From a virus, in IMG/VR virus record IMGVR_UViG_3300006076_000002, positions 28,859 through 92,858 of that record: DNA of 64,000 bases; one strand, given 5' to 3'. How positions within the stretch are numbered: the stretch's first letter is position 1; every line of letters starts with the position of its first letter. Under the pieces are notes generated by a model. It did no database searches. It was not told the origin of the DNA and worked only from the letters and a program-made list of their open reading frames with translations. Shown here piece after piece: positions 588 to 47,977 of this stretch. The translations under genes and the position numbers were made by a program.

Positions 588-1034
588 ATGAATACGTCAA
601 GCAGAATAAACAAAGTAATATACGAGCTAGTGTCATACTATATAGATAATCAACTACCTTTCAATATTATCGCACTAGATAAGGAAGATAGTTTTGATTT
701 ACCAAAAGAAGTGTACTACGATAATAGCAACGCAGTATCTATAGATATACTAGAATGGAATCTAGAGACTGCTGAGTATGACGATAAACATTTATATGTA
801 ACATATGTATATAACAATGAGGAAATACCTCTAACTATACCGCTAGTAAACATAAACACTATTATGGATATGACACATAGAAGTATAGTATTTGTAAACA
901 TATTTGAAACAAATATAGATGATGTAATAGTTACTGATACAAATCTAAAAGTAGAAAAATATGTAAAAACACATGAAAAAGAGATAGCTCATTCAATGAG
1001 TTGTTTATCTCTATGCAACAGTAAGGACGTATAA
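588..1034 (+). CDS. hypothetical protein, possibly SspB-like fold
   Basis: AAGGA RBS; pattern LP..V......I.I..WNLE...YDD..LYV......IPLTIPL.NI..I resembles SspB-type adaptors (by eye). Confidence 0.4.
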   Translation: MNTSSRINKVIYELVSYYIDNQLPFNIIALDKEDSFDLPKEVYYDNSNAVSIDILEWNLETAEYDDKHLYVTYVYNNEEIPLTIPLVNINTIMDMTHRSIVFVNIFETNIDDVIVTDTNLKVEKYVKTHEKEIAHSMSCLSLCNSKDV

Positions 1035-1366
1035 TGGCTAATATATTAGGACAAGACGAGATAGATGCATTGTTAGATGTATGCGATGAAACTACAGACT
1101 TAGAGAATTTACAATATCTAAGAGCCTTCTTTAGAGAAGCTCCTGTTGAAGGTACTGTTAATGACACCTATATACGAGTATCTAACAATTTAGCAAAAGA
1201 TATCATAAAGCAACTTGGTAGTGCTATCATAACATTGGAACGTTTAACAGAAGATGGTAGTAAGGCTAAAAATAGTTATAAAGAATGCGGTACTTGTACA
1301 GTGTGCGGAACATACAACGACCCAGACAGGCAGGTATGTAACTGCGCCAATAAGCAATTAATTTAG
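1034..1366 (+). CDS. small protein with FliM-like N-terminal peptide and C-terminal Cys cluster
   Basis: Starts MANILGQDEIDALLDVCDE; ends with CGTCTVCG...CNC; TAATG coupling and AAGGA RBS. Confidence 0.7.
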   Translation: MANILGQDEIDALLDVCDETTDLENLQYLRAFFREAPVEGTVNDTYIRVSNNLAKDIIKQLGSAIITLERLTEDGSKAKNSYKECGTCTVCGTYNDPDRQVCNCANKQLI

Positions 1367-1387
1367 ATATATTGATAAGGGCATATA

Positions 1388-1612
1388 ATGAAAGATATAC
1401 TAAATGAAAAAGAAGTAAATGAGATACTAAATATTTTAAGTAGCTATAGCGAGTTAGAGAACTTACAGCACATAAAAAGCTATTTAAAAGAAGTACCTAT
1501 ATCTGGTACAGTATTTAATTCTTATGTAGAAATACCTAGTAATACTGTAATAGATATTATTAAACAACTAGACAGAGTTATTACTATTTTAAAACAAACA
1601 GAAAATAACTAA
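1388..1612 (+). CDS. paralog of 1034..1366 lacking the Cys tail
   Basis: Shares LENLQ.....E.P..GTV...Y....N...DIIKQL...I..L with the upstream ORF. Confidence 0.75.
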   Translation: MKDILNEKEVNEILNILSSYSELENLQHIKSYLKEVPISGTVFNSYVEIPSNTVIDIIKQLDRVITILKQTENN

Positions 1613-2171: not shown

Positions 2172-2356
2172 TGAAGTATAGACTAAGAATTAGTTATAAC
2201 CATAAATCTACTGCTATAGGCCCTGGTATCCCTCCAAACACTGAAGTACTGCCAAAAGTATACGATAACATATTTGAAGCTAAGAGAGCTAAAGAACTTT
2301 TTATAAAACATAATGATGGGTGTAGTTTTACCATAATTGAAATAAAGAGTAGATAA
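2171..2356 (+). CDS. hypothetical protein (small NIFxxK family, copy 2)
   Basis: AAGGA RBS, TAATG overlap; DNIFEAK...FTIIEIK. Confidence 0.7.
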   Translation: MKYRLRISYNHKSTAIGPGIPPNTEVLPKVYDNIFEAKRAKELFIKHNDGCSFTIIEIKSR

Positions 2357-2562
2357 TGTCTCAGTTGTATATACTACATACTAATTACCATACAGGTATA
2401 GATTTTCAAGTATATTACTATGCATACAGTAAAGATACAGCAAGTTATGGTGTGTGGGCTACTGATATGGAGTATGCAACTAAACTAAATATATTTGAAG
2501 CTAAACAGGTAGTACATGAGTATAAACTTAAAGACTACAATCTAATTGAAATAAAGGAGTAA
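2356..2562 (+). CDS. hypothetical protein (small NIFxxK family, copy 3)
   Basis: TAATG overlap; LNIFEAKQ...YNLIEIK. Confidence 0.7.
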   Translation: MSQLYILHTNYHTGIDFQVYYYAYSKDTASYGVWATDMEYATKLNIFEAKQVVHEYKLKDYNLIEIKE

Positions 2563-2564
2563 CT

Positions 2565-3077
2565 ATGAGTATTTTACTAAAAGAAAAAATAGCAAAACAT
2601 AGAAATGGTAGGTATATAGGACTATATAAATGTGATTGTGGTAACGAATATACAGCAGTACAGACAAAATTCAATTCAGGGCATAATAAAGACTGTGGGT
2701 GTAGAATTAATGCAAAAAATAAAAAAGCCTCCCCTGAAGTATTAAGGTTAAAACAAATACGCAAAGGTATGCTGCAGAGATGTTACAATGAAAAAGCTGA
2801 ACACTACGACTGTTATGGTGGACGTGGAATAACTGTATGTAAAGAATGGGTAAACGATAAGGATACTTTTATAAAATGGGCGCTATCTAATGGGTATAAA
2901 ATAGACTTAAATGAAAAAGGTATCAATAAACTATCAATAGACCGTATAGACAATAATAAAGGATATTACTCTAGTAACTGTAGATGGGTAGATAAAAGTA
3001 CCCAAATGAAGAACAGAAGACCATATAGAGTAGGTAAACCTAAATTAACTATAGAATCATTTGACTGGGTAATATAA
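2565..3077 (+). CDS. free-standing HNH-type homing endonuclease
   Basis: CDCG, MLQRCYN, YGGRGITVC.EW, LSIDRIDNNKGY...NCRW motifs. Confidence 0.85.
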   Translation: MSILLKEKIAKHRNGRYIGLYKCDCGNEYTAVQTKFNSGHNKDCGCRINAKNKKASPEVLRLKQIRKGMLQRCYNEKAEHYDCYGGRGITVCKEWVNDKDTFIKWALSNGYKIDLNEKGINKLSIDRIDNNKGYYSSNCRWVDKSTQMKNRRPYRVGKPKLTIESFDWVI

Positions 3078-9350: not shown

Positions 9351-9424
9351 GTACCATTAAGCTCAAAGGTAGAGCTCATTTCCTTTTAAGATTTGGGTTA
9401 CTGGTTCGACTCCAGTATGGTACT
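9351..9424 (+). tRNA. tRNA-Lys(UUU)-like gene, atypical
   Basis: Acceptor GTACCAT/ATGGTAC, D arm GCTC/GAGC, loop CTTTTAA, T arm ACTGG-TTCGACT-CCAGT; two U-U mismatches in the anticodon stem, no encoded CCA. Confidence 0.75.
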
Positions 9425-19311: not shown

Positions 19312-19488
19312 TTGACTTTAGAACAATTATTCTCGATTCTACGTAATCTTGAGGAACTAAAACTACAAGGCGGTAAACGCTATAAAGCAATTACCTTATT
19401 ATTGCAGAAGGAAGCTACAACACACAATTGTGCTGAAGCCAGAATTCTGCTAGATCAGCTACAGTCCTCTATGGATAGCCTCAACTAG
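19312..19488 (+). CDS. possible 58-aa protein (TTG start) overlapping the convergent gene end
   Basis: Open frame fills the gap; no clear RBS. Confidence 0.3.
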   Translation: MTLEQLFSILRNLEELKLQGGKRYKAITLLLQKEATTHNCAEARILLDQLQSSMDSLN

Positions 19489-22400
19489 TGGGATTTCTGT
19501 CCCACCATTAAGTAGACTGCCCAAACCGTGGAATGGATTAATTCTATTCCAGAATACAGAGAACAAGTTACTATCAAAGATATCCGATTCATCACCCAAC
19601 ACTGCTTGCTCTAATTTACTAGCTGCAACTCTTGCCGGTGATTCCTTCAGCATTTTAATATTAACTCTCTGTATATTTGCAAAATACGTCCAAAATGCTT
19701 CAGGACCCATTCTCTCTAACCATCTGACAGTTTTACTGTTTATAACTTTGCTATAGTTAATAAAGCTATCCGTAACAAACCTGAATACATCCTCCTCATT
19801 CTCACCTTTTTCCATCTTAGCCCAATACATAGCAGCTCTAAAGTGAAAGTCACTCTCTCTAGTAGCTCTCAACAAGAACTTACCTGCTGCACTTCTCTGA
19901 GTCAAGAACAACGTCTCAACTGCATCTCTAGCTAATCCTTCATCACCTGTAACCTTTTCAGATAATCCTCTCAATTTTTTACTAATTTTATTTGTATCAT
20001 CATATATTGCAACATCATCAATTACCGACTGGTACAAACCTTTAGCCATCAATGGTCTCAACGGATTATTATCCAACTTGTACTGCACATCTGATATGTT
20101 TCTCTCAAGATTAGCTTTTTTACTCCCACTAGCACCTTTAACCAATCTCTGCAATCTATGTAACTCCTCCTCATCTTTTTTCCAGGTATCTAATGATCTA
20201 ATACTTTTAATCATCAACGTAATTGCCTGTCTCACCGGCACTCCGCTATAAAACAGTATCCTCATATTCGACAGTATATTATTCCATATAGTACTAGGTA
20301 ATCTGACAACCACATTACCTTTGAGCAATCCTATGAAATCCTTCCAGTAACTTTCAACAACCTGTACTTTATATTTAGTTCCAACATCCACCTTATTAAA
20401 TATTTTCATATCTGTAATACTCGGCTCTTGATATCCGAATAACTGAGCTATCAAATCTTTACGTATATAAATCTCTCTCCTTGGATTGTCATCTACACTT
20501 TTAAGCTGTTCTTCCATTGTCATACGATATCTTTTATCTGTATCATGTATTCTCTTATACACCTCAGTACCAGGCTTTTTAGCATCTTCACGTATTTTAG
20601 CCTTATCTACTTCTATGTTATGCTTAATAATATTATCTCTGGCATCTGGCGGTAACAATCCCCATAGTTCCTCACCTTCAGTTTTAATCCCATATTTACC
20701 TTTATCCAGTAACTCTTTATTACCATTCTTATACATCTCACGTCTAGTCTCTTCACTTAAGTCAAAATCCTTAGCTCTTACGTGTATAAACAATCTCGAA
20801 GTATCTTTAGTTGGATCGTTAGACTTAATATAACTATCTGCATAATCCTTATACAATATCCTAAGTACCTTTTGATTCTCCTTATCTGTCATCGGTTGTG
20901 TGCCTACGTGTCCCTCACTCTTAGCCAACACTTCTGCACCTCTAGTATCTAATTCTAAATATCTAATTTTGTCTTTCTTGCTAATTCCGTACCTAAAATC
21001 TGTTATATACCCTTGATCATTGAACACTGGATGCATATTTCCTATATTTTCACCATCCATATATTTTTGCACTAATGCACTCCTACTTCTTATATACAAC
21101 TTCCATACAGCATCTTCAGTCAATCCTGGATTTGACATTCTTATCTTATCTCTAAGTAGCAGCCCTTGCACTTTTTCTCTCTGCAGACCTACCGAACCAT
21201 CTACACGTCCAGCTACCTGCAAGTTACTATTTACATACTTTCCGTACTGCACTGGATCAGCATCCTTCAAGTCTCTATCTAGCACTTCAACCAGTGTAAA
21301 CCCTAACTCATTCATCTTTTTCTTCTCAGATACCGGAGCTATCTGTAGTTCTCTATTCCTATTGTAAGTATCTCTCACCTGCCCTTTTACATAGCTTTGA
21401 GGTTCATACTTATCATACTCCTCTTTCACAGCTACCTGCAATCCTTTAGCGTACTCTGTATATGCCATAACCCCATCAGGATCTTTCTCCAGTAATTCCA
21501 GCATAGTATCTTTAGCTTTGTCATCTATATGTGTCAATGCGTACAACGATATCAGCTTATCCACATCTTTAACTAACTTCTCATCCACTTCTGTTTCCCA
21601 GTAAGGCTTCATCTCTATGTGTGTACCAAACCCTCTAACTATGTTCTCTGCATTGGTTCTCAACCCTACCCCAGTAACCGCATACTGAGCAGCTTTGTGT
21701 GCATCCTTAGTTATCGCTTTATACCAGAAGTCACTACCTTGCTTAGCTATTTTAGCCTCTAATTCTTTAATATCTTTCCCAGGATTAGTTATATACCCTT
21801 TTAAACCATATGCACTCTCAGCATCCAATGCCTGTAGATCTGCTGACATAATTACTGCTTCCAGTGCATGGTCATACTTCTTATTCTCTTTCTTAAGTAA
21901 ATCCACTTTCTTAAACATAGTCTTATACACATCTACCAGTGTACCTTCATAGTTCTGGTGTCTTAATCTATCTATGTGTGATCTAAACTCCATAGTTAAG
22001 TCGGTAACCAGCTCTAATGTCTTTCTACCTGCCGTAAAATCTGCAAACAACTTTCTCAAGAAGCTATCCTCTGCAATCTTCATAGCTGACAAATAGTTAC
22101 CCCATAGGATCGCTAGGTGTGGTCTCTGGTACTCATCTGCACCTTGTATAGCAGCTTTAAACTTAGGCAGTATTCTAGCTAACTTGATAAACTTGACCAG
22201 TATATTGTCACTGTCTTTAGGCCAATTATGCTTTATTGGATTATACAAATCATCAAACTCTTGTTGTGTCATACCTTGTTTAGTTACACCTAATGTATTC
22301 TGTAGTAAATCATCCACTCTACCCGATATTTTCTTATCTACTTCATCTAACACTTTATTCAATGTATCTGATACTTTTTCATCTGCATGCTTACCACGTC

Positions 22401-23679
22401 TCATTGCTGCTTCACTACCGTACTTATCCTTGATAGCCATCAACTTGTATATCGTTTTAACCGTCTCTTCTTCTACATTCTTACCCTTAGCACCTTTAAA
22501 CTTATGCACCACTTTAGCTAGAAAGTCAGCTATCATATGCACTACCTTATCATATGCACTTTTATATTCTTTCTCTTTCTTCTCTGTAGTTATACTTTCT
22601 AGTGCATTCTTCATCTGTTTATTCGTCATAGCATATGCCATAAACTCCTGCAATCTTACAGATGCTGCTCTAGTATCTTCTTTACCTTTTCTACCGAAGA
22701 TGTAATCATATCTATCTTTAGCAGCATCTTTCTCCGCTTCCGTATACAACCCATCCTTAACTAAATGTTCTGGTTTCAGAGTCTCTCTAGCCTTCTTATA
22801 CAGCTCTTGTATCTGTAACTTCAGTGCATCTGCTTCTGTACCTGCATGTTTATTGTCAAACACCCAATCCAATGCTGCATGTACTACTTCATGTACCAGT
22901 GTCTCCTCATTTGTCATAGTTAACCTATTTCTAGCTTCTTGACTTAATGTACCTGTCTTTATTTTTATCGGAGCTAGTGGGTCATTCTTATCAAACTGTC
23001 CGTAAGGCTCTACCACTTTAGCTATCTGTTCTGTATTCAGCTTAACTACTGTCTTACCCAGATCCTTACTCAGCTTCATCACATTGCTCAATACTTCATC
23101 TAAATGCTTCCCATGTTCACTGTCATACTCTTCACCCATCAGACTTTTATCTAGTCTTCTAAGCTCGTCTCTTACATTCAGTATCGTATTTTCTGTACTC
23201 TCTTCACCAAGAAACAGTCTATCTATATCCTCATCTGTGAGTTCATCTTTGTTGTACAGCACATCATTCACGTACCCTCGTTTAATTACCTCTGTAACCC
23301 CTGGCATCTCCACCACTGTTCCATTAGCTTTCGTAGCTATACTTTTCTCACTACCCCTCTCAAACGTGTACTGGTGATTGTTATCTAGCACAACTGTAGT
23401 CTTACCTGCTCTAGGCTTGTATATGACTTTCTTTATACCTAGTTTCTTACTCTCTCCACTCTTCAGTGGGTCCTTGTTGCTGTAGTGTACCCAGACATCC
23501 TTTGGCATGTTATCCTGTAGATATTTCTCTGTAGCCTTTTTACGTGACTGCCAGTATACCTTCTCAGCTGTAATCTGCTTAGTGAGAGCTTCTACTTCTC
23601 TCTCTAGCTCATCACCTTTATACTTACCTTCTAACTCTTCTCTTACTTTAGCTTCTATGCTTCTTGTATCACATGCCAT
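19459..23679 (-). CDS. virion RNA polymerase C-terminal portion encoded as a separate gene (zincin HExxH domain)
   Basis: ETLVHEVVHA and QEFMAYAMTN resemble the C-terminal region of N4-type vRNAPs; GGAG RBS and TAATG coupling; a single Cys (residue 3). Confidence 0.75.
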   Translation of the reverse strand: MACDTRSIEAKVREELEGKYKGDELEREVEALTKQITAEKVYWQSRKKATEKYLQDNMPKDVWVHYSNKDPLKSGESKKLGIKKVIYKPRAGKTTVVLDNNHQYTFERGSEKSIATKANGTVVEMPGVTEVIKRGYVNDVLYNKDELTDEDIDRLFLGEESTENTILNVRDELRRLDKSLMGEEYDSEHGKHLDEVLSNVMKLSKDLGKTVVKLNTEQIAKVVEPYGQFDKNDPLAPIKIKTGTLSQEARNRLTMTNEETLVHEVVHAALDWVFDNKHAGTEADALKLQIQELYKKARETLKPEHLVKDGLYTEAEKDAAKDRYDYIFGRKGKEDTRAASVRLQEFMAYAMTNKQMKNALESITTEKKEKEYKSAYDKVVHMIADFLAKVVHKFKGAKGKNVEEETVKTIYKLMAIKDKYGSEAAMRRGKHADEKVSDTLNKVLDEVDKKISGRVDDLLQNTLGVTKQGMTQQEFDDLYNPIKHNWPKDSDNILVKFIKLARILPKFKAAIQGADEYQRPHLAILWGNYLSAMKIAEDSFLRKLFADFTAGRKTLELVTDLTMEFRSHIDRLRHQNYEGTLVDVYKTMFKKVDLLKKENKKYDHALEAVIMSADLQALDAESAYGLKGYITNPGKDIKELEAKIAKQGSDFWYKAITKDAHKAAQYAVTGVGLRTNAENIVRGFGTHIEMKPYWETEVDEKLVKDVDKLISLYALTHIDDKAKDTMLELLEKDPDGVMAYTEYAKGLQVAVKEEYDKYEPQSYVKGQVRDTYNRNRELQIAPVSEKKKMNELGFTLVEVLDRDLKDADPVQYGKYVNSNLQVAGRVDGSVGLQREKVQGLLLRDKIRMSNPGLTEDAVWKLYIRSRSALVQKYMDGENIGNMHPVFNDQGYITDFRYGISKKDKIRYLELDTRGAEVLAKSEGHVGTQPMTDKENQKVLRILYKDYADSYIKSNDPTKDTSRLFIHVRAKDFDLSEETRREMYKNGNKELLDKGKYGIKTEGEELWGLLPPDARDNIIKHNIEVDKAKIREDAKKPGTEVYKRIHDTDKRYRMTMEEQLKSVDDNPRREIYIRKDLIAQLFGYQEPSITDMKIFNKVDVGTKYKVQVVESYWKDFIGLLKGNVVVRLPSTIWNNILSNMRILFYSGVPVRQAITLMIKSIRSLDTWKKDEEELHRLQRLVKGASGSKKANLERNISDVQYKLDNNPLRPLMAKGLYQSVIDDVAIYDDTNKISKKLRGLSEKVTGDEGLARDAVETLFLTQRSAAGKFLLRATRESDFHFRAAMYWAKMEKGENEEDVFRFVTDSFINYSKVINSKTVRWLERMGPEAFWTYFANIQRVNIKMLKESPARVAASKLEQAVLGDESDIFDSNLFSVFWNRINPFHGLGSLLNGGTEIPLVEAIHRGL

Positions 23680-26600
23680 TAGTCACACTCCAACTGATCT
23701 AGTATTTTATTTGCTATTATATCCATTTCTGGGTTAGTCTCTGCTTTAACCTCTTGCAAAGGTCTATTAGCTAACGGAGTATCAACCACCTCGTCGGGCT
23801 CAACACTATGATTTTCGTACACCAATTCTTTTGGTAATTTACTCTTATCTAGTTTATTCTTAGGCACTTTAGGTACGTATTCCTCTTTACCTTCAGCTCT
23901 ATACTCAGCACCATCTAATGCACTGTGTCCTACACTGAAGTCAGTCTCAAACAGCACTTTACGACCTTCTTCAGCTCTTTTCTGTAATTGTTCCATCTCT
24001 TTCACTGTACTTCTCATTGTAGGTAGATGTGTTATATCTCTCATTCTACCAACACTCATCATAGCTATCCTAGCATTATCACTCATATCCATTTCACTGA
24101 CTGTATTCAGGTACTCGTTGTAAGCATCGCTCAAATCACCATCAAGCTTACTCAGGAATGTTTTAACCGCAGCTAACACTTCATTTTGATTCTTACCTAT
24201 CTCAACTACTAATTCTTTCTGTTCTGCGTATGACAACCCGTCTAATGCTGTAGGTGCTTCACCTTGTATCATATCGTATATGTCACTTACCGGATTCGTA
24301 AGCATCTTTCTAACTACATTCAGTACAGACTCCATAGCCGTATCATCTTCTACTTTCTGTATGACTTCTTTATCTACACCATTCAACGTAGCATACAAGC
24401 TATCTAGCATCTCTGTAGTTAAACTCCAATCCTTGCTCAAATGATATGCAGACTTGTTGTAAGACTTAGTTACACCCATAGCTTTATCTACTGTAGCGAA
24501 GTTTGCATCATGCACTCCTAATGCTTCCCACTTAGCTAGCACTTCAGCTTGTATCGAAGCATCCTGTGCGTGTATCGGCATTACCGCTCCACTAGTAAAC
24601 GCAACTACCATCTTGTACAACTCACTGTTAGCTCTCAGCTTATCACCGTTAGCTCTCTCTATCTTACCCTGGAGGTTTATAGCAGTGTTCATAGTACCTT
24701 CTGTCCAATCACCTTTAGCAGTCTTGAACAGCACCATTTGATCCCCATTACCATTGTCTAATGCCATATTTATAATCGGTAAGATAACCTTATTAGCTTT
24801 GAGTATAGCATCCACTTCTTTAGTAGTTAACGGTACCCATTTACTTTTATGTTTACCCTCATTCTTCTTTTTAGTTTCTATATCTATTTGTTTATTCACT
24901 TCTTCTAATGCAATCTTACCTATCAACGCAATCGTACTATTCGTAGTTCTAGTAGCCTTAATCAATTCTCCATACTGTTCTTCAAATGTATCTCTAATCG
25001 GTTTACCAACCACTCTAGCTACATGCTCTTGTACCATCTCGTAGAAGTTATCCGGTATCTTCATGTTAAGCACATTCATCGGTGTTTTATCTAACTCTGC
25101 CCTCAACTTACCTAACCATGCATCTACAGCTTCACTTTGCTTATCGTAGTACATTTTCTTACCTGTAGACGGATCTACCATCAAATACGAAGATGCTTTT
25201 AATGCTCTCTTCATCAGGTCAAATGCACCCTCTACTTCACTTACTTTCTTAGATGTTGCCATCGTAGTCATTAACGCATTCAAGTTACTTTTAGAGGGAT
25301 ATGGTGTACCACTAGTAGATAATGCTCTCTTAGCTATACTATTGATAATACCTTTCATACCTGAACCGTAGTTAAGTACCATGAACGGATGTTTCATGAA
25401 TGCTCTAGATATTTCTTCTATCAGATGTTCTTCACCATCACGTGTACCTTCTCCAAGTAACTCCATAGCTACTTCCATACCTTGGAGTATACCTTTAGCT
25501 CTTTTCTCTATCTCTGCTTGCGTACCTTTAACTAAAGCTGGGTGTGGAACCGGTTTTCCTATGAAACTTGGTACCGGATCTACAAACTTTAATTCCGCTA
25601 ACCCTTTACTGTTATCGAGTACTACTCCTTTAATTTCACCCTTCACATTTATATTTACTTTTTTAGCGTTTTCCACTTTCTGCCTAAATAATTCAGCAGG
25701 TTCTTGGTATGCATCTCTCTTAGTCTTATCATCAGCTATTTCTGAATACTTTGGCACGTGTCCATCTTTTACTCTCATGAATCCACCACGCTCTAATTCT
25801 TCAAACGTTTTCTTCATGTCAAGTTTACCACCCTTCACGAATATTGGCATCTGTAGCATCTTGAGTATGTAACCGCTAGTTACTGCATCCGTCTCTAACA
25901 TGATCGTAGACATATATGCTTCATCACTAGCACTTTCTTTATGGTTCATGTACTTGAGTATTTCTATCATACCTTTTATACCATGCTCATCATGCACACC
26001 TAGCACATCCACTAACTCTTTCAGATCGTCATTTGTAATATCTTGTATTGTAGGTATCTTAGCATCACCAAACACTCCATTAACTTTAGCTTCTAACCCT
26101 GCATACTGTTTTATAGATTTACCCATAGGTAACTTATCTACATCAACACCTAGTGCTTGCCCGATAGCTAACTTTAATATCTTCTCTTCTGTACTACCTA
26201 GTTTAACTTCAGCTTTACCCATGTCTGTAGCAAATCTATGCAATAGTATTGATTGATGGTCAAATTTACCACCTATGATACCAAATCTAAAGTTTGTAAG
26301 TATTCTCCACTTCTGCCAGAATGGTTTCTTACCTTTATCTGTAGCTTCATACACTTCATCTAGTAGTTTCTTCTGTCTATCTATAGCGTCATTCTTACCT
26401 TTAGCACCTTCTCTTTCATTCACATATATCGTATCTGGGTCTACTTTACCTAATATCTTATCTAGCAGTGAGTATGGTACATCTTCTCCGTTCTCATCAT
26501 ATCCTGTAGTGTCTGCAATTCCATCTAGCTTATCTAACCCTGTCATGAAATCTTCACCGATAGTCAATCTTGTATCACTCTGCTTCTTAACTGCTTTAAC

Positions 26601-29600
26601 TCTAGGTTCCGACACTGAGAACAACTTAGACACACTTTGGTGTTCAGTAGGCGTATCCTCCATCTCATGCTTGTTATCTTCTGTGTATATACCCAATGAA
26701 TCCTCAGTAGGTTCTAATACCTTTTCTAAGTCTGTAGTCATACCTTTATGTGCTTTAATCAGATCTTTAGCTGTAGTTGTCAAATTGTATGTAACTATAT
26801 CTGGTTTACCTGCATCTTTATCATTCTCATATATCATTGCAGCTGGAGTCTTATACCCTTTCTTAAACACCATTTCTTTCTTAAGTTTTATATCTCTATC
26901 TTTAGCATTTAGTATTATATACTCAGCTTTCTCTAACGCTAACATACCTAGCATACCTAACTCTGCTTTTAGTTTCTGCTCTATATACTCAGTATCTAAC
27001 CCTTCTGGTGCATCCTTTACAGCTTTAAGTCCTAGTGCTTTCCAAGCCTTATTACCTATAGTACTTGACACATAATCCATTATTCCATCAAAGTCTTTGA
27101 TTGACATTCTATCAGTCTGGCTTACCGGAGCATTTTTATCCATACCCTTCAACGCTCTTACTGCATTGTTGTCTCTACGTTCTGAGTCAAACTTAGCCAT
27201 ACTATCTGTCAACACTTCTACTGCGCTTGTTGCCAATGCCTCAGCTACCTTACCGTTTAACTCTAGTTTACCTTTATTAGCGAACTCACCTTCAGGCACT
27301 GTATATGCCATTAGCATTCTACTTACACTTTGGAATCCTTCTACACTATCTGTACCAAACCACACCATGTTAGCTCTTGCAGATGATAAGTCATTCTCTA
27401 CTACACTTTGTACACTTCCTGTCAATTTCTTTATAGTTACACCTGCAGTAAGCAAGTTCTTCTGTGCTACACTTGACAGTGTTTCCTTTTTCTGTGCTAG
27501 TAACTCTCTTAGCACATCTAAAGCTGTAGCATTTAAATTCTTAGGCTCTGTAGCAGCTTTGAAGAACTCGTGTAAGTAACCTTTGCCGTATGCAACATCT
27601 ACACCATTTTTAGCTTCAGTAACGTGATGGGATTTATTGTCAGCAGTCCATGCAAGTATACTACTAGCTACTTTGTTATCTCTTTCAGCTGTTTTATCTA
27701 TCAGTTCAGATTTCTTTTCTTTGATTGCAGCTTTGGTGTCTTTTACCTTATTATTAACCTCTTGCATTTGTAATATACGCTTTATGGTTTTCTTTCTAGT
27801 TTCTGTTAATTTTCGTTCTTTGCCTTGTGTTTGGTCTTTTATGAAATCTTTTTTATATTCAAGCTCATCTTTTTTAGCTACCTTTTTGTCAATAGCCTGT
27901 TGTATACTACTTTCTACTTTTTTGTTGGTAGTTTCAGCTAGTTTATTATACAACGCATCAACACTGCTATCTATGCTTGCTATATAGCTATTTATACGCT
28001 TTATACTAGCATTAGACTTTTCTAACTGTTTAGCTGTCCACATCCTAGTTTGTATGGCATTTCTGAGTATATGTCTTTTAGTATTTTTAAAGTTATACCC
28101 ATCTGTCAGTTTATCTAGTGTGTTCTGTTTCTCGTATACTTCTTTTTCTAGCTCTTTAATTTCAACCTCTAAATTGGCTATTTCTTTATCTATACCTGTT
28201 AGCTCTTCTTGCTTAGGTTTTGTGCTCTCTGTATTGCCTTGTCCAGTACTTTGTTCTGTTCCTGTAGTAGTGCTTTTTTCTTCTGTAACAACTTTAGTTT
28301 CTTCATTTTGTTTTGCATCTATTTTTCCTTTATTTAGTAATCCTAATTTTTTAAGCGCAAATACATTTGCATCTTTTTCATATAATGCAGGATCAGCAGT
28401 ATATTTTTTTCTGAACTCTTCTTTTCCGTATTTGCCTATCTGTTGTGTATGTCGATACTCGTGTAATAACAGAAATTTACGTATATCTTGTGGGCTTAGC
28501 TTACTTATCGTATCTAAGAAGTCTATACTATAGTCTTTATTTATGCTATCTGTAACCTGTTGTTTAGTAAGTATAACCTCTTTAGACTTTTCGTCTTTAA
28601 ACTCTCTATGAGTACTTAAGTAATCTAATACCTTTTTTGCTGTAATGTTCTTACTGAGTCTAATTTTACTACCGTCAGAAGAGGTACCAGCCAACTGTCC
28701 ATTAGAAGCATCTGCCGAGTAGTATCTAATAGGTATACCAGCTACAGTAGCTGTCTGTACATTCGCATTTTTCTCTTTTACTGCACCTTCTACGACAGGT
28801 GCAGCTTCCTCAACCTTTTGCTGCGTAGTTTCAGCTTGTTGTGGCTTACCTACCTCTAGTGTACCGTTGATAGTGTCTGTAGCTAAACTGTTTATGTCTT
28901 GTAGTAACTTGTACTCTTTCTCTAATTTTGCTGTAAACCCTTCAGACTTTTTACCGTCATACACGTACTTACTTCCAGGATAGTTCACATCTACTTTTAG
29001 TTTAGCTAGGTCATTTTTAGCTTTATCTAACCCTGCAGCATCTTTACCTATAGCCTCTAAGTTTTTGATAGTTTCACGTAAGTTATCAGCCTTCTCTTTA
29101 TACACTCTTTGAGCAGCTTTAAATGCATCCCTCTTCTCTGCTTGAGTACTCATAAACTTATTCATAGCTATTATTGCACTATCTCTAGCTGTATCTGATT
29201 GAGCGTTTATGACTGCATCTAGGTGTTCTAGCATCCCTAGTTTTCGCTTACCTTTGTACTCTCCACCAAGCAGCTTTAACGCTAACGATTCATTCTTATT
29301 AGCTTTATCTACTACCGTAACCCCATTAAAGTCTTTACTATGTACCAGATCACTAACCAATTTCTCAGCTTTCAGTTTAGCTAACTCTTTTACCTTTTCA
29401 CTTTTAACAGTTTCATCTGTTATATCAGCTAACTCTGTCTGAACTTCTGCCATATCCTTAGCTATTTCTTTAGGGTCCCTATTCCCTAATATTTCTGATT
29501 CACCATTTAGTTTACGTCTAAGGTTCAGAGCATCTTGCAGATGTTTAGTAACTAACTCTTTTTCAGTTATTATCTCTGGAGTACTGTCTAATGAATCTAA

Positions 29601-31820
29601 TGTTGTTAAATGAGTCATTAAGTCATCTATATTTTTATTTAACCCAGGTTTACCATCTGAACTACCATTCAGTATAACCTTTTTCATAGCATCTTTAACT
29701 TTAACGTTCTTAGGATCATCAACCTTGCTAGCTATACTTTGAAACGTAGGTACATTTGTCATTGCTCTATTAGCGGCATCTCTACTAGCCGCTAGTTCTT
29801 CATCTGTAGTTACCTTGGCTTCTACCGGTTTACTACCTTTAGGTAATTTACTTTTTAAACTATTCACTGCGTTTGATAATTCTGCTACACCTTGAGTTGC
29901 ACCTGCAATGTGTCCACCTGCTAGCCCTTCTATACCAGCCACTTTAGCATCTAATTGATTCTTCTCATTAGCTATTATGCTTTGTAGGTCATCACCTTTC
30001 TTACCAGTATCCCACTGTTTACCTAGTATGTCTGCCCACTGTTGTAAGTACTCTTCAGTACCTTCTACTGCCATACCCTTACCGCCTGCAGCTGCCATCC
30101 TACCTGCTGACTTTAGTACTGAATGCCATAATTTATCAGTTGCTTTCTTACCTAGTACGCTAACTGAGTCTTTCAATGCTACTTTAATCGGTTTAGTGAT
30201 TACCATTGCACTCTCTAACCCTATGTAAGTCTGTAATGCTGCTGATATACTAGCTAATGCAATGTCTTCTCCTCCAGTGTGTTTCTGCCCTTCAGCTTCA
30301 TTTCTAGCTGCTAAGGTATCATTAGCTATTCCAGTGAACATCGCAGTAGCACCGGCTCTCTCTATTCCTTTAGCTAGTACTTTCTGAGCCATGTTTAGCT
30401 TGTTATTAGCAGCAGCAGTCAACTTCTCTGCTTGCACTACCTTACCAGCTTTCATTAACTGTGCAGCTTTCTCATATGCCTTACCTATTTTACTGCCATT
30501 CTTAACTACCATCATGCCAGCTTTTGCTTCACCAGCCCCTATCATGAATGTACCAACGCTACCAACTACGTTACCCACGATGTTACCACTACGCATTGCA
30601 TGCCATGCAGCCATCCCGTAGTTACCTTTCTTTATGTCATCCTCTACTTGTGCTTGTTCTCTTTGTGCTTGATCAGTGTTAACTCCGTATGTTGCATCTG
30701 CCATCTGACCTATGTTCTCGTTCGTGTAGTACTCTTTCGTATCGTTGTACCCATCACCACCTAACCAACTAGCTACTCCATTCATCTTGAAACTGTGGGC
30801 TATGGCATCTTTCTTCTCTGCTTCTAGTTTAGCTCTTTCTTCTTTACTTGTGGCATTAGCTATTTGATGGTCATAGTAAGCTTCTTCTGCTTTACCTATC
30901 AACCAGTCAGGTGCGTCATTAGCTACTGCATCTATTGCCTGACCTATTGTACTAGTAACTGTACTTGCAGTTCCTTTAGCGACCCCTTCTAGGAATCCTT
31001 GATCACCAAATTTAGCTTTGTTTAATGCAGCTAGTAATGCTTCTCCATTATCTACCGGTTGTATTTCACCTTTATTACCGAATGAGTCTTCGTATGCGAA
31101 TCTTCCACCTGTATTAACTTGGTTATCATTATGCATTACCGCATTTATGTCTACCCCTTCTTTATTCGCTAAGTATCCTAGTTCACGTGACATATTCGAT
31201 TTTTGTACACCTTTTACCTTTACTGGTATATTCATGCCATTGCCGCCACTGTAGGCATTTTTACTTAAGTCCGTCCTAGCTCCCGGTATGTATGGTGCTT
31301 CCCAGTCACTATTACCATTTACTATATCAGCTAGTTGCTGTATCTTATTCATGTTAGCTACATCTAGCATGTCTTGCTCAGTAATGTTAGCTGCAGTCTT
31401 GTGTGCATTTGGATTGTTTTGGTTTATTACGTCAGCAACGCCTTGTCTTTGTGCATCCATTGATAGTGCACTTTTACTGTATTTGTATTTTTCTGGTTGG
31501 TTACGCTTTAAGCTGGGTTCTACTCCATACATATCGTATGGACGATTACCGTGTAAGGTCTCTACTGCATCTATTCCAGCAGTTCTGTATGTGGATTCTT
31601 TACCTGTTGTAGGATCGATTGTAGTGAATCCATCACCGTCATCCCCTGTGTATTTGAGTATGGCATCACTGTAAGTACTAAGTCTATCTCCTGATAGTTT
31701 GTTAATCTTATCTTGTGCTCTTTGCTGTAAGTTGTCTACTTTAGTATTAGTTGAATTCGACCCAAATGCTGCTATGTTTTCCGCTATGTTTTCTGCTGGG
31801 TCTTGTAGGTATTGAGGCAT
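23679..31820 (-). CDS. giant virion-encapsidated single-subunit RNA polymerase (N4 gp50-like), N-terminal and catalytic portion
   Basis: Motif A LETDAVTSG, motif B RAFMKHPFMVLNYGSG, motif C GVHDA; 2713 aa; a single Cys (penultimate residue); N4 synteny. Confidence 0.88.
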   Translation of the reverse strand: MPQYLQDPAENIAENIAAFGSNSTNTKVDNLQQRAQDKINKLSGDRLSTYSDAILKYTGDDGDGFTTIDPTTGKESTYRTAGIDAVETLHGNRPYDMYGVEPSLKRNQPEKYKYSKSALSMDAQRQGVADVINQNNPNAHKTAANITEQDMLDVANMNKIQQLADIVNGNSDWEAPYIPGARTDLSKNAYSGGNGMNIPVKVKGVQKSNMSRELGYLANKEGVDINAVMHNDNQVNTGGRFAYEDSFGNKGEIQPVDNGEALLAALNKAKFGDQGFLEGVAKGTASTVTSTIGQAIDAVANDAPDWLIGKAEEAYYDHQIANATSKEERAKLEAEKKDAIAHSFKMNGVASWLGGDGYNDTKEYYTNENIGQMADATYGVNTDQAQREQAQVEDDIKKGNYGMAAWHAMRSGNIVGNVVGSVGTFMIGAGEAKAGMMVVKNGSKIGKAYEKAAQLMKAGKVVQAEKLTAAANNKLNMAQKVLAKGIERAGATAMFTGIANDTLAARNEAEGQKHTGGEDIALASISAALQTYIGLESAMVITKPIKVALKDSVSVLGKKATDKLWHSVLKSAGRMAAAGGKGMAVEGTEEYLQQWADILGKQWDTGKKGDDLQSIIANEKNQLDAKVAGIEGLAGGHIAGATQGVAELSNAVNSLKSKLPKGSKPVEAKVTTDEELAASRDAANRAMTNVPTFQSIASKVDDPKNVKVKDAMKKVILNGSSDGKPGLNKNIDDLMTHLTTLDSLDSTPEIITEKELVTKHLQDALNLRRKLNGESEILGNRDPKEIAKDMAEVQTELADITDETVKSEKVKELAKLKAEKLVSDLVHSKDFNGVTVVDKANKNESLALKLLGGEYKGKRKLGMLEHLDAVINAQSDTARDSAIIAMNKFMSTQAEKRDAFKAAQRVYKEKADNLRETIKNLEAIGKDAAGLDKAKNDLAKLKVDVNYPGSKYVYDGKKSEGFTAKLEKEYKLLQDINSLATDTINGTLEVGKPQQAETTQQKVEEAAPVVEGAVKEKNANVQTATVAGIPIRYYSADASNGQLAGTSSDGSKIRLSKNITAKKVLDYLSTHREFKDEKSKEVILTKQQVTDSINKDYSIDFLDTISKLSPQDIRKFLLLHEYRHTQQIGKYGKEEFRKKYTADPALYEKDANVFALKKLGLLNKGKIDAKQNEETKVVTEEKSTTTGTEQSTGQGNTESTKPKQEELTGIDKEIANLEVEIKELEKEVYEKQNTLDKLTDGYNFKNTKRHILRNAIQTRMWTAKQLEKSNASIKRINSYIASIDSSVDALYNKLAETTNKKVESSIQQAIDKKVAKKDELEYKKDFIKDQTQGKERKLTETRKKTIKRILQMQEVNNKVKDTKAAIKEKKSELIDKTAERDNKVASSILAWTADNKSHHVTEAKNGVDVAYGKGYLHEFFKAATEPKNLNATALDVLRELLAQKKETLSSVAQKNLLTAGVTIKKLTGSVQSVVENDLSSARANMVWFGTDSVEGFQSVSRMLMAYTVPEGEFANKGKLELNGKVAEALATSAVEVLTDSMAKFDSERRDNNAVRALKGMDKNAPVSQTDRMSIKDFDGIMDYVSSTIGNKAWKALGLKAVKDAPEGLDTEYIEQKLKAELGMLGMLALEKAEYIILNAKDRDIKLKKEMVFKKGYKTPAAMIYENDKDAGKPDIVTYNLTTTAKDLIKAHKGMTTDLEKVLEPTEDSLGIYTEDNKHEMEDTPTEHQSVSKLFSVSEPRVKAVKKQSDTRLTIGEDFMTGLDKLDGIADTTGYDENGEDVPYSLLDKILGKVDPDTIYVNEREGAKGKNDAIDRQKKLLDEVYEATDKGKKPFWQKWRILTNFRFGIIGGKFDHQSILLHRFATDMGKAEVKLGSTEEKILKLAIGQALGVDVDKLPMGKSIKQYAGLEAKVNGVFGDAKIPTIQDITNDDLKELVDVLGVHDEHGIKGMIEILKYMNHKESASDEAYMSTIMLETDAVTSGYILKMLQMPIFVKGGKLDMKKTFEELERGGFMRVKDGHVPKYSEIADDKTKRDAYQEPAELFRQKVENAKKVNINVKGEIKGVVLDNSKGLAELKFVDPVPSFIGKPVPHPALVKGTQAEIEKRAKGILQGMEVAMELLGEGTRDGEEHLIEEISRAFMKHPFMVLNYGSGMKGIINSIAKRALSTSGTPYPSKSNLNALMTTMATSKKVSEVEGAFDLMKRALKASSYLMVDPSTGKKMYYDKQSEAVDAWLGKLRAELDKTPMNVLNMKIPDNFYEMVQEHVARVVGKPIRDTFEEQYGELIKATRTTNSTIALIGKIALEEVNKQIDIETKKKNEGKHKSKWVPLTTKEVDAILKANKVILPIINMALDNGNGDQMVLFKTAKGDWTEGTMNTAINLQGKIERANGDKLRANSELYKMVVAFTSGAVMPIHAQDASIQAEVLAKWEALGVHDANFATVDKAMGVTKSYNKSAYHLSKDWSLTTEMLDSLYATLNGVDKEVIQKVEDDTAMESVLNVVRKMLTNPVSDIYDMIQGEAPTALDGLSYAEQKELVVEIGKNQNEVLAAVKTFLSKLDGDLSDAYNEYLNTVSEMDMSDNARIAMMSVGRMRDITHLPTMRSTVKEMEQLQKRAEEGRKVLFETDFSVGHSALDGAEYRAEGKEEYVPKVPKNKLDKSKLPKELVYENHSVEPDEVVDTPLANRPLQEVKAETNPEMDIIANKILDQLECD

Positions 31821-47563: not shown

Positions 47564-47977
47564 TTAAGCACTAAATAACACTATTTCTTTTACCCCAGTG
47601 TTAGCCAAATCTAGATGACACCAGCTAACATCCTTTTCTATTCGTCTGATATGCGGAAATTCCTCTTGGTTATTTAGAATATATTGCCTTACTTCTTCGG
47701 CTGTGTACTTGCTCCACACTATATCTAACGCATTACCGTAACTGTGCTGGCTCCCTACCTTGTAGTACTTACTATCTGGAGTTCTTATTCCACTCCATTC
47801 TCTATTACCACCCCAGTAGTAGTTATTGATTGTCATAGTTCCATCACTGAATACTTCTTTTAGCTTATCTATCGTCTCAATCAGTCTGACATCAACATAT
47901 CGCCAAGCTTTTTCTCCATACGTATCATAAAGCACCTTAGGAACCAGTTCATGTATTTTAAAGTGTTTAGAAGTCAT
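47564..47977 (-). CDS. endolysin, peptidase M15 family
   Basis: HFKIHEL, SGIR, SQHSYGNALD, WCHLD (HxxxxxxD...H zinc ligands). Confidence 0.85.
   Translation of the reverse strand: MTSKHFKIHELVPKVLYDTYGEKAWRYVDVRLIETIDKLKEVFSDGTMTINNYYWGGNREWSGIRTPDSKYYKVGSQHSYGNALDIVWSKYTAEEVRQYILNNQEEFPHIRRIEKDVSWCHLDLANTGVKEIVLFSA

Follow-up and report, generated by a model that had tools for sequence, protein, structure and literature searches.

Phosphorylated CheY (CheY-P) docks on the N-terminal peptide of FliM (FliM-N). A 110-aa phage protein, here called P1, opens with a peptide of similar sequence, and the question raised by this locus is whether a virus has copied a host docking peptide and, if so, from which lineage and to what effect. 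The DNA analysed (the window, 64,000 nucleotides) comprises bases 28859-92858 of a complete 92,858-bp (ca. 92.9-kb) virus record, and coordinates refer to the window unless another sequence is named.

Genome of the phage and position of P1

The virus record has 99-bp direct terminal repeats and a G+C content of 35%. It is the complete genome of an N4-like podovirus, with an N4-like gene set: virion RNA polymerase, portal, major head protein, large terminase, and family-A DNA polymerase. The virion RNA polymerase gene is split in two, and the shorter ORF matches positions 2231-3009 of 3406 in phrog_2206:

19459-31820, - strand: virion RNA polymerase, split; a 2713-aa ORF and an overlapping 1406-aa ORF

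The closest cultured relatives of the DNA polymerase are those of Alteromonas phages, at an identity of only 41%. DNA of this phage was present in one sequencing run only, a hydrothermal-vent metagenome from which it may originate. One phage tRNA, a tRNA-Lys (anticodon TTT), is encoded at 9351-9424.

P1 and the following gene, P2, are located in an array of small genes on the same strand. A DnaD-like protein is encoded on the 5' side, and an HNH endonuclease and the DNA polymerase on the 3' side; the P1 gene belongs to the replication (middle) module. Promoter-like sites were not more frequent than in shuffled sequence. The features of the two genes are:

1034-1366, + strand: P1, 110 aa; FliM-N-like peptide, small alpha/beta-hairpin/alpha core, and Cys cluster
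1034-1090, + strand: P1 residues 1-19 (MANILGQDEIDALLDVCDE); copy, by sequence likeness, of the FliM N-terminal CheY-P/FlhG docking (EIDAL) peptide
1091-1258, + strand: P1 residues 20-75; family-wide core of helix, beta-hairpin, and long helix
1286-1345, + strand: P1 residues 85-104; Cys cluster C-x2-C-x2-C-x10-C-x-C, in P1 only and absent from P2
1388-1612, + strand: P2, 74 aa, tandem paralog of P1; AAGGG at 1377-1381

The ATG of P1 overlaps the stop codon of the preceding ORF (TAATG), and AAGGA is found at 1023-1027, 6 nt upstream. Both ORFs were found where the initial annotation had placed them. It had also described the second as a paralog with a degenerate motif, and this holds: the two proteins are 36% identical over residues 1-70 (BLASTP, E 5e-20). 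The N-terminus of P2 (MKDILNEKEVNEIL) keeps the hydrophobic spacing of the peptide and has lost Q7, D/E8, D11, and A12; the FliM-N HMM described below reported no match to it.

Neither protein belongs to a Pfam family or matched FliM or FliMN_C at E-values up to 1, and PF02154 had no match anywhere in the phage genome. The possibility that P1 is itself a FliM was ruled out, as it has neither the CheC-like middle domain nor the C-terminal SpoA domain (Pfam), and without these it cannot be part of the C-ring. The body of P1 has no likeness to FliM, in keeping with the earlier description of a peptide fused to an unrelated body with a Cys cluster. The cysteines of that cluster (C85, C88, C91, C102, and C104) may form a small zinc ribbon, with a score of 14 bits against Pfam Zn_ribbon_RanBP, under the cut-off of 27, and a pLDDT below 50 in this region. 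The cluster was otherwise seen only in an unrelated 167-aa protein, P0011.

Likeness to FliM of the Campylobacterota

FliM was present in 77 of a sample of 81 Campylobacterota genomes, from which a set of 70 N-termini (56 distinct) was obtained. Most begin with MADILSQEEIDALL(E/D)VVD(E/D), which bears out the start that the initial annotation had given for this lineage. P1 is identical to the best of them at 15 of 19 positions, in a fixed register from Met1 and with the flanks included, and the mean for the phage family is 13 of 19. FliM proteins from Gammaproteobacteria reached only 10-11 of 19, even though that sample had been pre-selected for eight residues in common with P1. Residues 5-14 of P1, LGQDEIDALL, agree with nine of the ten positions of the core L-S-Q-x-E-I-D-A-L-L and lie within the first ca. 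16 residues of the protein. D11 of P1 is the equivalent of Asp12 in E. coli FliM, which forms a salt bridge with CheY Lys119 that stabilises the complex (bioRxiv 10.1101/762922).

A profile built from 49 distinct Campylobacterota FliM N-termini (the FliM-N HMM) gave P1 a score of 35.9 bits over 20 positions and 39.0 bits over 30 positions, with E-values of 4e-4 and 5e-5 at Z = 1.8e9. P1 alone scored among the phage ORFs of at least 60 aa. When a profile of the phage family was used instead, the FliM N-terminus ranked first in 55 of the 61 Campylobacterota genomes searched (16-31 bits, per-genome E 4e-7 to 0.015), while the best matches in 61 Gammaproteobacteria had only 11-16 bits (E >=0.02). 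In some Campylobacterota FliM the alignment with the phage-family profile reaches positions 28-36, beyond the docking motif. The HMM scores and the lineage specificity of the profile matches indicate that, at the level of sequence, the N-terminus of P1 is a copy of FliM-N, and specifically of its Campylobacterota version. The likeness, as scored, is far beyond chance, and the FliM-like EIDAL peptide described in the initial annotation is significant and closest to the Campylobacterota type.

The change from Ser to Gly at position 6 had been named as one that could weaken binding. This concern is lessened because position 6 is T, K, N, or R in natural FliM proteins; position 12 also varies in real FliM, with S or M. 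The nucleotide identity between the P1 peptide and the 5' end of fliM is ca. 75% over 57 nt, which gives no sign of recent capture.

The P1 family and a structure model

Searched with HMMER, 1.8 billion representative proteins yielded 10 matches, corresponding to about 8 relatives, all of them small metagenomic proteins. Seven are full-length relatives of 70-86 aa, including P2 and the cluster member P0012, and they come from short metagenome contigs (0.6-4 kb). Six of the seven start with MADILxQ(D/E)xI(D/N/E)xLL(D/S); the remaining one is P2. Loss of the motif from homologs had been named beforehand as an observation that would count against mimicry, and an EIDAL-type start was instead found in every full-length homolog, in degraded form in P2. 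Two shorter entries in the family have no peptide, and one of these (P0010) shares a 90% cluster with a full-length form that does.

The seven full-length members are 30-60% identical to P1, and with P2 left out, L5, Q7, I10, L13, and L14 of the peptide are invariant. Position 11 is D in three, N in three, and E in one, while position 12 is A, I, or E, which means that not every member has the full canonical set of contacts. Just after the peptide the family alignment has acidic insertions and indels of up to 6-7 residues. The core domain, in which L26, Q27, P37, G40, T41, L61, and I65 are invariant, is as well conserved as the peptide.

An AlphaFold2 model of P1 from a 9-row alignment had a mean pLDDT of 63.5. 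The core (residues 30-70) was modelled at a pLDDT of ca. 80, with a helix at 22-35, a hairpin at 39-46, and the first part of a helix at 51-81, and the C-terminal tail was unstructured. The N-terminal helix (7-18) had a pLDDT of ca. 55 and was neither freed nor packed with confidence. The model had no match to a solved fold (Foldseek against the PDB, best E 1.6; VIA wide, best Z 4.1), and the ESM Atlas held nothing usable for the fold of the P1 body. Co-folding of family residues 1-74 with E. coli CheY, a stand-in used with no alignment and no controls, scored 0.14 and 0.13, where the mark is 0.32; these scores speak neither for nor against binding.

Other searches for relatives returned little. 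A k-mer protein search found the query itself only; tblastn of P1, whole or as its first 20 aa, had no match among cultured phages, and a metagenome scan with alignment A2 had none. A 370-aa protein (L003) that appeared in viral-contig scans with P1, P0003, and P0007 was rejected as a spurious partial match that shares only TDLENLQYL. Two viral contigs (L004 and L005) encode a DNA polymerase 78-86% identical to that of the phage and carry no P1-family member. Both begin just upstream of the polymerase gene and therefore give no information on synteny.

The octapeptide across bacteria

Bacterial genomes were searched for the octapeptide of P1, QDEIDA(L/F)(L/F), back-translated into a degenerate DNA pattern. 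There were 121 matches, of which 103 (85%) were in one homology cluster of FliM, FliY, and FliN, ca. 6 residues from the start of the protein. Pfam analysis of 119 of the ORFs identified 87 FliM, 10 CheC, 16 CheX, and 3 CheZ. Only ca. 15 of the 121 matches resemble chance occurrences, and by this count the octapeptide is a hallmark of CheY-docking peptides.

The sample includes the motif on several scaffolds: on FliY-type proteins (CheC/CheX with SpoA), on one FliN, and at the C-terminal end of three CheZ-family proteins. At the N-termini of FliY and FliN and in the C-terminal peptide of the CheZ family, the EIDAL-type motif is a portable docking module, as it may be in P1. These proteins, however, are host components of chemotaxis or of the motor with known enzymatic or structural domains, and P1 has none of those domains.

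Three alphaproteobacterial proteins of 170-260 aa that cluster together (L011, L027, and L115) have ...SQDEIDALF(D/A) as their extreme C-terminus. Pfam CheZ was assigned to three members of the octapeptide ORF set, and these proteins look like CheZ-type phosphatases that end in a docking peptide of the FliM kind. At another locus (L055) the octapeptide lies within the N-terminal region of a FliN adjoining fliM.

The same peptide in Campylobacter phages

A 22-aa Campylobacterota FliM N-terminus was compared by tblastn with 50,697 phage records. Sixteen records matched, all of them Campylobacter phages and from both genera of the Eucampyvirinae; the single E-values are weak (0.5-5), and the striking part is the restriction to one group of hosts. 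As a control, the gammaproteobacterial FliM N-terminus had no match among the phages, to which the low-complexity filter may contribute. Two of the matching proteins begin with the peptide at their annotated start codons:

L197:1501-1866: CP21_042, Campylobacter phage CP21, 121 aa, starts MAQILSQEEIDALL
L198:1501-1806: F341_068, phage F341, 101 aa, starts MAMILSQEEIDALL

The two are 46% identical and together make up phrog_8774, a group of small hypothetical proteins. Aligned with the P1 family by hhalign, the phrog_8774 proteins matched over only 19-23 columns in the N-terminal part, and the bodies could not be aligned. P1 likewise matched the phrog_8774 profile over residues 1-23 only (E 0.024). 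Membership of P1 in phrog_8774 was thus rejected, the likeness being confined to the N-terminal peptide; the FliM peptide that they have in common explains the weak phrog matches to P1 residues 1-15 and 1-23.

Like P1, the phrog_8774 proteins are small phage proteins in which the first ca. 14 residues are the FliM-N peptide (ILSQEEIDALL), and their hosts are flagellated Campylobacterota. Unlike P1, they keep the canonical Ser and Ala and have an unrelated body, and they are encoded by large myoviruses rather than an N4-like podovirus. The presence of one peptide on two unrelated phage proteins, with known or inferred Campylobacterota hosts, is the pattern expected of functional mimicry. A structural accident would not readily account for such recurrence.

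The host

Three indirect lines of evidence point to a host among the Campylobacterota: the vent metagenome as possible source, the lineage-specific mimic, and a related N4-like phage in a Campylobacterota assembly (G315). The phage probably infects flagellated Campylobacterota. The related phage (G315:C10; loci L215-L218) is complete, with 63,229 bp, a 94-bp terminal repeat, and a G+C content of 34.5%. Its major head protein (major capsid protein) is 61% identical to that of the phage studied here; the corresponding values are 50% for the portal and 40% for the primase-helicase. No gene of the P1 family is present in it.

A second copy of the related phage is found inside a 565-kb chromosomal contig of 40% G+C (C1:167599-230827; loci L210-L214), with genes for AlaRS, PBP1, and RpoD next to one end and those for HisD and DsbD next to the other. 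The ends of this copy are identical to those of the stand-alone contig, with 40 mismatches between the two. Identical ends point to a join made in assembly rather than proving integration, and the embedded phage is probably such a join. The same assembly encodes CheA and a FliM that begins MADILSQEEIDALLEVVDE.

A host similar to Alteromonas was considered and rejected: the polymerase is only 41% identical to those of Alteromonas phages, and the peptide agrees far less well with FliM from Gammaproteobacteria.

Possible targets of the peptide and alternative explanations

The likeness of P1 to FliM-N includes a free N-terminus, the same register from Met1, the core and overall identities given above, the Asp equivalent, and an acidic stretch after the peptide. 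The differences are the absence of the PF02154 and PF01052 domains, Gly in place of Ser at position 6, and the fact that P1 is encoded by a virus. The hydrophobic face of the docking peptide is kept in P1, as is the Asp (D11).

CheY-P is not the sole candidate target, as the EIDAL motif has a second known partner. In Shewanella putrefaciens the EIDAL motif of FliM is reported to be both required for FlhG binding and enough to bring it about, and the motif matters in Bacillus and Vibrio as well; in Vibrio, an E9K change alters flagellar number and chemotaxis (bioRxiv 10.1101/2022.04.21.489128). In C. jejuni, C-ring proteins control the localisation of FlhG, flagellar number, and polar division (PMC6946799).

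On balance we lean towards an account in which P1 is a linear-motif mimic that docks on host CheY-P and/or FlhG, as competitor or as adaptor, with CheY-P the first candidate and FlhG the second. P1 would be an accessory protein, expressed from a middle gene, in which the free N-terminal 14-19 residues mimic the EIDAL peptide of host FliM. The peptide would occupy the site by which phosphorylated CheY normally docks onto the flagellar switch, and it may also, or instead, occupy the EIDAL-recognising site on the MinD-like ATPase FlhG. The result would be to disconnect motor switching and chemotaxis, or else the control of flagellar number and polar division, from the inputs that normally govern them. 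The core domain may add oligomerisation or a second contact, and the putative zinc ribbon of P1 may do likewise. Binding by the peptide, its target, and its effect on the host are what we infer from this likeness. Since cultured Campylobacter phages have this peptide at the start of an unrelated protein, both the vent phage and those phages probably interfere with the swimming of the host or with its flagellar control.

The explanation that survives best next to this one is that the N-terminus of P1 is an ordinary amphipathic helix, used in structure or self-association, and that P1 has another role, for example in replication, with the likeness to FliM due to convergence or to an inherited remnant. 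The location of the gene between those for a DnaD-like protein and a DNA polymerase agrees with such a role, as do the conservation of the core domain, which equals that of the peptide, and the variation of the family at positions 11 and 12. In P2, the hydrophobic pattern is all that is kept, which would be compatible with a helix that serves the internal structure of the protein. An amphipathic helix has no need, however, of 15 of 19 identities in a fixed register that includes the lineage-specific flanks (MADIL and DV-DE), nor does it account for 36-39 bits against the FliM-N HMM. The peptide also heads an unrelated family and, among the 50,697 phage records, was matched only in Campylobacter phages, and the indels of up to 6-7 residues that follow it suggest a tether rather than a packed helix. 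We therefore consider a purely structural helix unlikely.

Somewhat less probable still is that the target is FlhG and not CheY, and that P1 disturbs flagellar number and, in those Campylobacterota that have no Min system, septum placement, as part of a takeover of division. Interference with host division is a common function of early and middle phage genes. Besides the binding of FlhG by EIDAL in Shewanella putrefaciens (bioRxiv 10.1101/2022.04.21.489128), this explanation draws on C. jejuni, which uses FlhG in place of Min and in which C-ring mutants mislocalise FlhG and make minicells (PMC6946799). Against it, a stable contact between FlhG and a protein of the C-ring has so far not been detected in C. 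jejuni (PMC6946799), and the sequence of P1 does not distinguish binding to FlhG from binding to CheY.

It is very improbable that the peptide is a functionless remnant of a captured host fliM 5' end that supplied a start codon: the similarity to some Campylobacterota FliM up to profile positions 28-36 could mean common descent, but the peptide is conserved in seven full-length members with L5, Q7, I10, L13, and L14 invariant, the nucleotide identity of only ca. 75% over 57 nt to fliM shows no sign of recent capture, and the peptide was acquired or kept independently on phrog_8774.

Relation to known mimicry

The docking motif at the head of P1 is a known one, and what is new is its occurrence in a virus. 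Among eukaryotic viruses, short linear motifs that imitate signalling peptides of the host are well known. In the literature searched, no report was found of linear-motif mimicry at the bacterial chemotaxis or flagellar switch or of phage-encoded mimics of FliM or CheY, and no description was found of the function of phrog_8774. In the carrier state of Campylobacter phages, loss of motility has been attributed to a mutation of host FlhF, and FliM was not mentioned.

A wider proposal is that phages of flagellated Campylobacterota have repeatedly put the FliM docking peptide at the N-terminus of at least two unrelated small proteins, which would make up an unrecognised class of mimics intercepting CheY-P and/or FlhG; in the present phage, the mimic, its paralog, and a GGDEF enzyme (below) would together take over motility, flagellar number, or polar division. 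This proposal is a tentative one that we place a little short of probable.

If the peptide binds CheY-P or FlhG, a tag of 15 residues would let phages stop the steering of their host or re-set its flagellar number and division. Such mimics would be natural competitive inhibitors of the contact between CheY and FliM. They would also allow hosts to be predicted from sequence alone, since the flanks reproduced in the mimic are those of the host's own FliM and are specific to its lineage. A cultured system suited to a direct test is available in phages CP21, CP220, and F341 with C. jejuni, and F341 and its relatives have already been studied in connection with motility.

Other genes of the phage

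A stand-alone GGDEF protein of 146 aa is encoded 26.3 kb before the start of the window, on the - strand (G000:C1:2103-2546; locus L196:2103-2543), where its gene adjoins those for a DUF3307 membrane protein and a PIN-PhoH protein. It matches PF00990 with 38.6 bits against a cut-off of 23.8 and contains RIGGDEF, and it covers only positions 2-104 of the 161 in the profile. From this match it is a possible phage diguanylate cyclase of relevance to motility control, and if active, it would fit a wider attack on that control.

An ORF of 137 aa at 47564-47977 (- strand), which has no Pfam match, contains the pattern SQHxxGxAxD...H, which we take to recall M15-type cell-wall peptidases. It is 65% identical at the nucleotide level, over 300-350 nt, to two loci of a Campylobacterota genome, G018 (C18:21159-21458 and C4:22328-22683). 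The FliM flank of that genome (LLDVVEDE) is among the closest to the phage family.
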